Assembly (NCBI GenBank): GCA_963828735.1
Contig: CAWHFW010000002.1
Span: 896,001 to 960,000, forward strand
Direction of reading: 5' to 3'
Source: an uncultured Gemmatimonadales bacterium
GTDB lineage: Bacteria > Gemmatimonadota > Gemmatimonadetes > Gemmatimonadales > GWC2-71-9
Length of the DNA stretch: 64,000 bases
In this document: positions 36,001-39,000 of the stretch, in pieces
Position numbering within the stretch: the stretch's first letter is position 1
Layout of the letters: each line of letters opens with the position of its first letter
Program-made: the position numbers

Positions 36001-39000
36001 GTCGCGAGGCCAAGGCCGTCGGATCCGATCCGGAGGGCACGCGACGGCAAGGCGGAGGCCGCCACCGAGGGGTGGAACGGTCGGAGCAGCAGCCCCGTCA
36101 GCGTGCCCACCACCAGGCCGAAGACCAGCGCGTAGAGCACGGACTCCAGCGCCATCAGGACGAACACGCGGGCCTCGAGCGGGCCCGACCGACGCCGGTC
36201 GCGCCACGCGAGAGCCAGGCCGGTTCCGACCAGCAGCACGCCGAACGCGATCAGCCCGTTCCGTCCGCCGAGCAGGATGAAGGCGCTCTTGAGGAGGACG
36301 TCCGCCCCGTTCCGGACGCCGGTCATCGCCTCGTGCGACAGCGTGAACGCCAGCGCCTCGTACGCCACGAGAAGCGGAAAGGCGAAGGTCACGCTGTAGC
36401 GCGGGGCGCGACTCGCGTGCCAGTAGCGGCTGGACGATGAGGCGAGGGTCATGTGAGGGGGAAAGCGGAAAAGAAAAAGGGGCCGCGCTCGGCGGCCCCC
36501 CCAGGTTCCAAGTGTCGCCCGGGTCTCAGCATGCAGTGCCGTTCAGCAGCCGCAGGCGACCCTTGACTCTGTAGACAATGGATCACCTCCTCGGTAGCGG
36601 GTAGAACATATGGTGCGTGAGTGAATAGTAGGAGCCTCACCCGCGGCGCGGCAAGTCCTGGCTTCGACACGAGCACGCAACGAACCCGCATCGCGCATTG
36701 ACGCCCACCGCCGCTGCCACAACATTTGCCCGGATGCCCTCCACCTCGATCAGCTATCGCGCCGTGGTCCGGGTGGGCGTCGCGCTGGCTCCCGCCATCG
36801 GCCTCGTCAATCAGAAAGTGGGCGACGGTCATCGCCGACGACGGGGTGCCGCGGATCGTCTGGCCTGGTGGGCCACATCGAGCCGAGACCGAACGCGCCC
36901 GCTCGTGTGGTTCCACGCGGCGTCCGTGGGCGAGGGTCGCCAGGCGGAGAGTGTGCTGCTCGAGCTCCAGCGGCTCCAGCCGGCCTGCCAGGTCGTCTAC
37001 ACCCACTTCAGCCCATCCGCCGAGCCGCTCGCGCGGCGCCTCGCCGTCGACGCCGCGGATTACCTGCCCTACGACCGCCCAGCCCAAGTCGAGCGCCTGC
37101 TCGACGCGCTGGCCCCCGACCTGCTGGTCTTCGCCAAGCTCGACCTCTGGCCCGAGCTCGCCACACGCGCGGCCGCGCGCGGCGCCGGCGTGGCCCTGGT
37201 CGCCGCGACGGTGAGCCCGGGAAGCGGTCGCTTGCGGTGGCCCGCCCGACGCCTGCTCCGCGCGGGCTACGAGGTGGTCCAGGCCGCCGGGGCGATCGCC
37301 GAGGCCGACGCGGCGCGTCTCGCGATCCTCGGCGTCGATCCTGCGCGGACCCGTGTCCTGGGCGATCCGCGCTTCGACAGCGTGGCAGCCCGCGTGGCGG
37401 CCGTGGCGTCGGACGACCCGTTGCTCCGGCTTGGCGACGGCGCGCCGACGCTGGTGGCCGGGTCGACCTGGGGGACGGATGAAGCGGTCCTCCTCGGCGC
37501 CTTCGCCGCGATACGCTCGCGGCGCGCGGACGCGCGCCTGATCGTGGTCCCGCACGAGCCGACGCCCGACCACCTGGGCGTCCTCGATCGGCGCGCCGCG
37601 GCACTCGGCCTCCCCGTGCCGGTTCGACTGAGCGCCGGCGGTGGCCCGGCACCGCTGCTCGTGGTGGATCGCGTGGGCATGCTCGCGACACTCTACGGCG
37701 CGGCAACGATGGCCTATGTCGGCGGCGGATTCGGCCGCGCGGGCCTTCACTCGGTACTGGAGCCCGCGGCGTGGGGCCTGCCTGTCGCCTTCGGGCCGCG
37801 ATGGCGCGAGAGCCGCGACGCCGGACTGCTGATCGAGGGCGGGGCGGCCGCGGCACTGGATGACCGGGACGCGGCGGTCACGTCGCTCCGGCGGATCTGG
37901 GAAGGTTGGCTGACGAACGAGGAAGGGCGTCGAACGGAGGGGGCGCGCGCGCGGGACATCGTCACCGCTGGACTCGGCGCAGCCGGGCGGTCCGCCGAGA
38001 TGCTGGCCGAGCTTATTTCGTCACGACCCCCTCGAAGGTGACCGTGCGGGGCACGAGGATGCCCAGCGTCAGCACGGTCAACAGCACATCGCTAAACCGG
38101 CTTCGCGTCCGGATCTTCACGTTCGTGACGGCCGTGCCACCCCCGACCTGCGACGCGAGCGCCTTCCGAAGCGACGGCTCCTTGATCGTGATCACGCCCC
38201 AGAACCCGAAGACGGCCTTGCTGGAGACCTGGAACTTGTCGCCCGCGGGCGGCTGACCGGCCGGTGCGGCGAGCGTGGCCGGGACTCCGAGCGTGGCGGC
38301 ATCGAACGTCTGCGCGCACCCGGTGACGAGGCAAGCCAGCACGAGCGCGAGGACGGCGCCCAGTGATCTCACAGACCGGGGACCCGAAAGGCGTAGTGCG
38401 CACCCACGCCGAACGTGCCTGGATCGGTAGCGTCACCGACGAACACGCGATCGTAGGCCGCCTGGATGCCGAAGCCATTCAGCAGATTGAGCTCGAGTCC
38501 CCCGCTCAGCCCGAATTTCGTTTCCGTGTCCGACTCGCCGCTGGCCTTCTGGTAGGCGACATCGACGCGAGGGGCCAGCCATGGATGGATGGCCAGCGTC
38601 GGATTCGGAATGACGAGGGCGAAGCCCACGCCGATCGGGAAGTGGTACGCGGTGATTTCCTCACCGGGCAGGAATCCCTCCCCCGGCTTGGCGTAGCTCA
38701 CTCCGGCCTGCAGCGTCACCGACAGGGGCACCAGGGGTCCGCCGACGACGCGATAGTTGAGGGTGCCGCCGACGGACATGTCGCTTCCCGCCGGCCCCTC
38801 GGGATCGAGCGCCGACCAGGTGGCCGTCGCGCCGAGGTCTCCGAACCCCACGCGCACCGTCGCGCCGTATGCGGTTCCATTGCCCGCGGCGTCGTTGGGA
38901 AAGCCGACGTCCCCGTAGATCCCGATGCCACGCGGCACCCCGAGATTGTAGACCGGAAGTCCCGGGTTCTGGGCCGCGAGGGGAGCTGCGCCCAGCGCCA

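Follow-up and report, generated by a model that had tools for sequence, protein, structure and literature searches.

A tiny stand-alone gene, real and previously unannotated, lies at this locus in the genome of a soil bacterium, and it is of a kind that is already known but unexplained. We propose, with about as much belief as doubt, that it specifies a stand-alone rre-type ribosome-gated RNA, in which the RNA would be the product and translation the trigger.

The element and its surroundings

The features on which the argument rests, all within the 64-kb stretch of DNA that was analysed as a whole (the window), are the following:

36649..36654, minus strand: predicted -35 hexamer TTGCCG, 18-nt spacer; the pattern stands at a fixed distance in 31 of 38 loci of the genus
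36625..36630, minus strand: predicted -10 hexamer TACTAT; same genus-wide pattern as the -35
36470..36618, minus strand: predicted transcript of about 149 nt; start inferred 7 nt 3' of the -10, end at the terminator
36579..36591, minus strand: extended Shine-Dalgarno (SD) of 13 nt, fully complementary to the 3' end of the host 16S and directly adjoining the start codon
36543..36578, minus strand: ORF of 11 codons that opens with UUG and closes with UGA; conserved in start, frame and stop
36554..36562, minus strand: 16S-tail mimic within the ORF (GGGUCGCCU); predicted partner the SD (closed state) or the 3' arm (rod)
36533..36553, minus strand: apical hairpin whose loop contains the stop codon; codon 11 and the 3' strand covary
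36514..36521, minus strand: 3' arm CRGGCGAC, putative second partner of the mimic, in this genus on a purely thermodynamic basis
36476..36502, minus strand: intrinsic terminator hairpin, GC-rich, its U-tail reaching about 36470
36734..38041, plus strand: KDO transferase gene (waaA/kdtA, PF04413), divergent; context only
35676..36452, minus strand: CPBP/Rce1-like protease gene (PF02517), downstream and co-oriented; context only

The ribosome-binding site and reading frame described in an earlier note on this DNA are in place, with AGGAGGTGATCCA at 36591-36579 of the minus strand, TTG at 36578-76 and an 11-codon ORF (MSTESRVACGC) closed by TGA at 36545-43. The terminator that the note had ascribed to the element is also there (36502-36476). 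As for the promoter, a consensus scan at the locus gave no site, whereas the spaced pattern TTG-N3-(16-18)-TAN3T stands 32-37 nt 5' of the SD in 31 of 38 loci of the genus, against 15 of 1900 random 55-mers. The position of this pattern places the start near 36618 and therefore the length near 149 nt, and not at the 160 nt or so first claimed. The identity of 84-90% given for relatives becomes 74-93%, with a median of 83%, over 36 of them.

There is a weak hint that the element is transcribed. RNA-library contigs, which are strandless, come from relatives and have no DNA control, cover it with 0-9 differences in the four soil or rhizosphere runs examined (24 listed), and in two of these four they reach beyond the predicted start; among the contig ends listed, two lie at 36609-36610, one reaches 36645 and one continues with unlike sequence.

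The KDO transferase gene is divergent in 30 of the 38 genus loci. In the window, as in 28 of the 38, the CPBP gene comes next in the same orientation, 18 nt past the U-tail. This position of CPBP, and one RNA-library contig that runs over the terminator into the CPBP gene, would suit a cis-acting leader, that is, a ribosome-dependent attenuator of the protease gene. We consider this reading very unlikely, however: (i) 9 of the 38 loci lack CPBP, their next gene being a convergent DsbA, yet the element is intact; (ii) among the wider relatives classified below, CPBP lies downstream in only 6 of 62 class C and none of 15 class B loci (some flanks being shorter); and (iii) none of the four folds computed for the window RNA opens the terminator stem. 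In leader-peptide attenuators of the trpL type, translation matters and most of the peptide sequence does not; compared with these from their description, the window element differs in having no fixed downstream gene, no antiterminator fold and no run of sensing codons.

Turning to the ribosome-binding site, AGGAGGTGATCCA has a single match in the window at up to one mismatch (chance mean 0.10). Its pairing with the genome's own 16S tail comprises 13 Watson-Crick pairs and one G-U, 14 bp in all (-26.4 kcal/mol), and the UUG adjoins the complementary block; the first base of UUG, unlike that of GUG, is unpaired with the 16S. Since two further non-rRNA sites in the genome likewise match 13 nt of the 16S tail, the SD alone is not unique. 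Across the class the 3' part of this "super-SD" is variable, and what stays constant is GGAGGUG and its spacing to UUG or GUG. Outside the window, C5:2538768 (minus strand) of the same genome has an SD match of 13 nt that lacks a standard start and precedes a mimic-like GGGGTCGCT; it is possibly a decayed paralogue. The two 16S genes, which lie on C2 at about 13.6 kb and 46.4 kb, beyond the window, end in the same tail, the sequence near their 3' ends being noticeably different; contamination is given as 5.17%.

Distribution and classes

We sorted the Gemmatimonadota loci by motif into four classes, whose labels are our own: class A, 11 codons, of this genus and type (40 unique loci); class B, 14 codons (about 20 loci); class C, mostly 17-22 codons (about 115 loci); and class D, 25 codons (3 loci). 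Dropped before the class analyses were 9 of 60 loose-pattern, 5 of 70 exact-pattern and 4 of 40 one-mismatch loci, and also L053, L113, L146, L165, L168 and L170.

"Phylum-wide", as the element had been called, overstates a patchy distribution. The exact motif is present in 99 of 401 Gemmatimonadota genomes, the motif at one mismatch in 166 (control, 3) and a free-spacer pattern in 197, a figure that includes false matches inside genes. A profile built from 60 class C loci, and biased towards that class, was run on 136 motif-negative genomes hand-picked from about 200 and matched 41 of them at E 1.1e-7 or better. By family the matches were 23/26 in f7, 4/4 in f8, 4/5 in f4, 2/5 in f6, 1/1 in f5, 3/41 in f1 and 4/35 in f2, and the same search found none in f3 (3 genomes), f9 (4) and f10-f12 (12), families without a convincing member. 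The readable profile loci (35 of 38) keep GGAGGUG and a UUG or GUG start, their spacer and second codon being variable; serine as an obligatory codon 2 was an artefact of the search pattern, as profile matches carry other codons. By extrapolation, carriers make up some 55-60% of the 401 sampled genomes, in seven of twelve families, all of them in the window's class.

Unpublished genomes enter these counts as follows: G057 is included in the exact, one-mismatch and free-spacer totals; G057 and G403 in the class sorting, the survey of residue 11 and stop, and the promoter and neighbour counts over 38 genus loci; G097 in the profile search; and G707 in the gammaproteobacterial scan below. G057 and G403 are left out of the pN/pS, duplex-versus-shuffle, class A covariation, stop, fold and leader/loop analyses.

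Beyond the phylum, an 18-nt scan of GTDB returned at least 120 loci, mostly from alphaproteobacteria. Among the matches listed, 115 of 120 loci open an ORF of 10-27 codons (control, 23%); 7 of the 80 with titles are of Gemmatimonadota type, and none of those 80 titles names Nitrospinota. The motif was found in 21 of 121 genomes of the alphaproteobacterial class to which one locus belongs (raw matches), in 8 of 121 from Gammaproteobacteria, mostly inside genes, and in 11 of 121 from the phylum of the planctomycete locus, about four of these being element-like (L114, L351, L353 and L354, with ORFs of 10-18 codons and hairpins downstream). Phage-borne versions were considered and rejected: the 34 viral-contig matches are mostly ordinary genes, with a few rreB or CC2171 types and none of a Gemmatimonadota class. 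The SD motif alone is therefore not diagnostic.

Several other settings of the same ribosome-binding site were seen. Eleven related viral contigs (L317, L321, L322, L324, L325, L331, L333, L335, L339, L340 and L343) have the long SD and UUG before a 65-codon ORF. In Azospirillum (L146, L168) it precedes ORFs of 59-60 codons that resemble signal-peptide proteins and are followed by a terminator. It also stands before a 25-codon ORF in Pseudohongiella (L107) and before one of 33 codons, with a clear terminator, in Prochlorococcus (L165). At L067:1501 the motif belongs to one of the spacers in an array of CRISPR-like repeats.

Start, frame and stop are conserved, the peptide hardly

All 40 class A loci have the TTG start and 11 codons, and all 37 analysed for the stop have it at codon 12 as TAG, TGA or TAA; TGG, expected 8.1 times if positions were independent, does not occur. 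In class C the frame is kept in 106 of 109 loci, indels being mostly of whole codons. Counting changes along minimum spanning trees, we obtained pN/pS of 0.84 for class A (14 ORF changes in total), 0.66 for class B, with a mild synonymous excess (P 0.03), and 1.26 for class C. The known relatives gave 0.96 (rreB), 0.83 (rreR) and 0.91-0.99 (CC2171, sequences grouped by length and without codon alignment), and control genes in the same genomes 0.22 (DsbA) and 0.25 (CPBP). Four of the five four-fold third positions of the ORF are invariant; the control genes have none among 12 and none among 11. The peptide is thus under little or no purifying selection, while start, frame and stop are conserved; since these three are fixed and pN/pS is near 1, it is translation as such, up to a fixed point, that is selected, and largely not the peptide. 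With 0.66-1.26 set against 0.22-0.25 in neighbouring genes, the notion of the peptide as the product finds no support here.

A reading still to be weighed is that of an ordinary small-protein gene of low expression, whose 11-residue peptide would either target a partner or serve as an arrest peptide. The conserved start, frame and stop would be expected of such a gene, rreB is known to be translated (as described in PMC5711450), the class B ratio points the same way, and RNA constraint can mask protein constraint. We nevertheless regard it as quite unlikely, given the values near 1 in the other classes, the unrelated peptides of the different classes (11, 14 and 17-25 residues), the mimic's reading frame, which in classes A and B differs from that in class C, and the persistence of a few frame-shifted members (L090, L240, L244, L253, L272 and L306).

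Two special readings of the peptide's end were rejected as well. Selenocysteine read-through of the TGA fails because most relatives have TAG there, and Cys-Gly-Cys as a modification motif for the adjacent CAAX-type protease fails because 26 of 38 loci have R, H or L as residue 11.

A copy of the 16S tail with two possible partners

The structures described here are predictions, and the relatives compared are not independent of one another. The 16S tail recurs within the ORF as a wobble copy: GGGUCGCCU in class A, GGAUCGCC in class B and GAUCGCC, in another frame, in class C. This mimic is predicted to pair with the SD, its alternative partner being the 3' arm within a long rod. The SD:ORF duplex (-18.1 versus -9.0 when shuffled) beats shuffles in 20 of 20 class A loci and in only 30 of 109 of class C. 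In class A the SD:mimic helix is invariant and therefore uninformative. In class B its 8 pairs are never broken (9 one-sided changes/variant cells, 17 sequences), and the rival rod covaries at 7 pairs, a score reached in 0 of 500 shuffles; this comparative evidence bears out both helices in the 14-codon relatives. In the class A apical hairpin two-sided changes occur at 3 pairs (11 cells), a score that 1 of 500 shuffles equals, its inner pairs being broken in 3-14 of 37 sequences.

When only the RNA up to the stop is folded, as in a nascent transcript, the mimic is predicted to lie on the SD in 36/37 sequences of class A, 16/20 of B and 75/111 of C. In full-length folds it lies on the 3' arm in 16/37, 8/11 and 44/80, respectively, and with a 30S footprint imposed on these in 37/37, 8/11 and 57/80. 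For the window RNA the closed state is favoured over the rod by about 3.6 kcal/mol (-61.9 against -58.3), and the free RNA is predicted to be 98% closed. The argument for the class A rod is one of folding energy, the mimic:3'-arm pairing being better than shuffles in only 4 of 20 loci, and no covariation in this class tells the closed state from the rod. A switch was not seen in CC2171-class RNAs (mimic on the 3' arm in 4 of 29), nor do nascent folds of rreB place its designated mimic on the SD (0 of 9); rreR has its anti-SD match in the 3' arm.

Other foldings were observed beside these. In class B (for example L052, L054, L059, L083 and L197) 16 of 20 loci show complementarity between the 5' leader and the terminator loop, over 4-7 bp, mostly CCC to GGG, with the matched changes CCCG/CGGG, CCCU/AGGG and CGCUCG/UGAGCG; own pairings exceed swapped ones at P 0.03, an excess absent from classes A and C, CC2171, rreR and rreB, and an end-to-end pseudoknot is possible in class B. 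In class C (alignment A3) a leader GCCC and an ORF GGGC are complementary and both almost invariant, with no compensatory change seen. One class B member, L066, has an insertion of about 60 nt with additional hairpins 3' of the stop, and retains the rod.

Sequestration of the SD by the ORF itself recalls aapA3 of Helicobacter pylori, in which nascent hairpins, one of them inside the ORF, hide the SD during transcription (as described in PMC6733600). A type I toxin mRNA with such a metastable hairpin is nevertheless an extremely improbable identity for the window element. Most type I toxins have a transmembrane segment (according to a passage of PMC4147584), whereas this peptide is hydrophilic, 11 residues long and without one; neither a hydrophobic, conserved peptide nor peptide selection was found; and overproduction of RreB was harmless (PMC5711450). 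Furthermore, the completed RNA is predicted here to open and not to remain shut.

Kinship with rre and CC2171

The rre genes were described by Hahn et al. 2016 (PMC5711450), the portions of which used here deal with alphaproteobacteria only and treat the rre peptide as conserved, a view to be set against the ratios that we obtained for rreB and rreR. According to these portions, rreB (Bradyrhizobiaceae) and rreR (Rhodobacterales) are small mRNAs with a hallmark of 16-17 nt of 16S complementarity; rreB binds and co-sediments with 30S and is translated weakly; loss of the start codon makes it 3-4-fold more stable, and it gives rise to a 60-nt fragment of the ORF; it is far scarcer than ribosomes, and 20-fold overexpression left growth unchanged.

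The earlier note had called the element a counterpart of rreB and rreR, which holds for geometry, layout, rod and the SD-sequestering pairing shared with rreB loci, and fails for the 16-17 nt hallmark and the phylum-wide spread. Like the rre genes, the window element is a stand-alone gene of about 150-170 nt, an orphan with its own predicted promoter and terminator, in which GGAGGUGAUCCA runs up to a weak, non-AUG start, followed by a short ORF and the terminator; in both, the SD is predicted to be sequestered in a hairpin and the context is not conserved across lineages, and rreB loci have a similar GGAUCGCC mimic in the ORF. In contrast to them, the complementarity to the 16S 3' end, which the note had rightly seen, stops at 13 perfect pairs plus the G-U (13-14 bp), the start is UUG rather than GUG, the ORF has 11 codons, the phylum is another one and the peptides have no likeness past the start. 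As to the relatives in our sample, the 5' end of the alphaproteobacterial 14-codon type matches the published rreB primers, and the 18-codon Rhodobacterales type is rreR by length and host.

The statement that Rfam gives no hit is correct at the gathering score; below it, CC2171 (RF01867, a Caulobacter sRNA) aligns end to end with the window element at 22.8 bits (threshold 75; E 0.005), the score coming mainly from the terminator and the SD-start block, with the middle unaligned. The CC2171 consensus likewise opens with an SD-start-UCU block and ends in a terminator; unlike the window element it is filed as a non-coding sRNA and is not predicted to form a two-state switch. Five tested "VSHC" alphaproteobacterial loci score 76.7-96.8 bits, above the threshold; rreB loci (42-49 bits), three of five Gemmatimonadota loci (29-37 bits) and rreR loci score under it. 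Because rreB scores on CC2171 and one alphaproteobacterial class passes, the rre, CC2171 and Gemmatimonadota elements appear to be one superfamily. The window element is neither a strict rre, by the length of its complementarity, nor a CC2171, by score, and yet is built to work alike. In the literature searched, which included few subscription journals, no paper dealt with rre genes in Gemmatimonadota, the function of rreB/rreR was not taken up later than 2016, and CC2171 was nowhere equated with rre; a term search of the available text of PMC5521070 gave no mention of CC2171.

That rreB co-sediments with 30S also suits another reading, namely that the RNA parks or shields 30S subunits, occupying the anti-SD and guarding idle 30S from 3' exonucleases, with the ORF serving only to let the ribosome go. 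The energy of the 14-bp duplex would exceed the opening cost of the fold (about 12-13 kcal/mol), and adding an SD oligonucleotide shields 16S against RNase R in vitro, as reported in a part of PMC10901742. We hold this to be unlikely: the scarcity of rreB and its harmless overexpression speak against it, in many Gemmatimonadota the SD is decayed in its 3' part, and the conserved mimic and the stop in the apical loop are left unexplained.

Discussion

From the observed sequence features, selection pattern and class B covariation we infer, for the ribosome-gated RNA that we prefer, an order of folding and an output. (i) In the nascent RNA the ORF mimic would cover the SD, so that co-transcriptional loading of ribosomes is blocked. 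(ii) Once the 3' arm is made, the mimic could switch to it and form a rod that begins about 17 nt past the start codon, leaving the UUG and the SD accessible; the two folds are predicted to be near balance in this genus, and either completion of the RNA or invasion by the 30S may be what opens the closed fold. (iii) The long SD would then grip the 30S, as shown for rreB, and a weak start together with the rod would make productive initiation slow. (iv) A ribosome that clears the start would unzip the rod and terminate at the apical loop, which may lead to re-locking and to cleavage of the RNA. The level of the RNA, or of a fragment with the anti-SD mimic, could in this way report initiation capacity in trans.

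More widely, and only as a tentative suggestion that we think rather less probable than not, rreB, rreR, CC2171, the Gemmatimonadota elements and a few Planctomycetota loci may form a cross-phylum class of "decoy mRNAs", in which an RNA's own copy of the 16S tail locks and unlocks its SD, and which would be translated for the act and not for the peptide, as a gauge or guardian, acting in trans, of 30S initiation capacity.

Earlier rre work centred on peptides and found nothing. The wide sample redirects the question, as what is selected is the start, the frame, the stop and a helix with two partners, and not the amino acids; this pattern of selection therefore provides specific mutants for tests in tractable alphaproteobacteria. 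The group now extends to a second phylum that is abundant in soil, with relatives spread over much of the host's bacterial class, and is tied to an Rfam family filed as non-coding. If the wider suggestion is true, these elements would represent a housekeeping-like, ribosome-directed RNA, as a class so far unrecognised.
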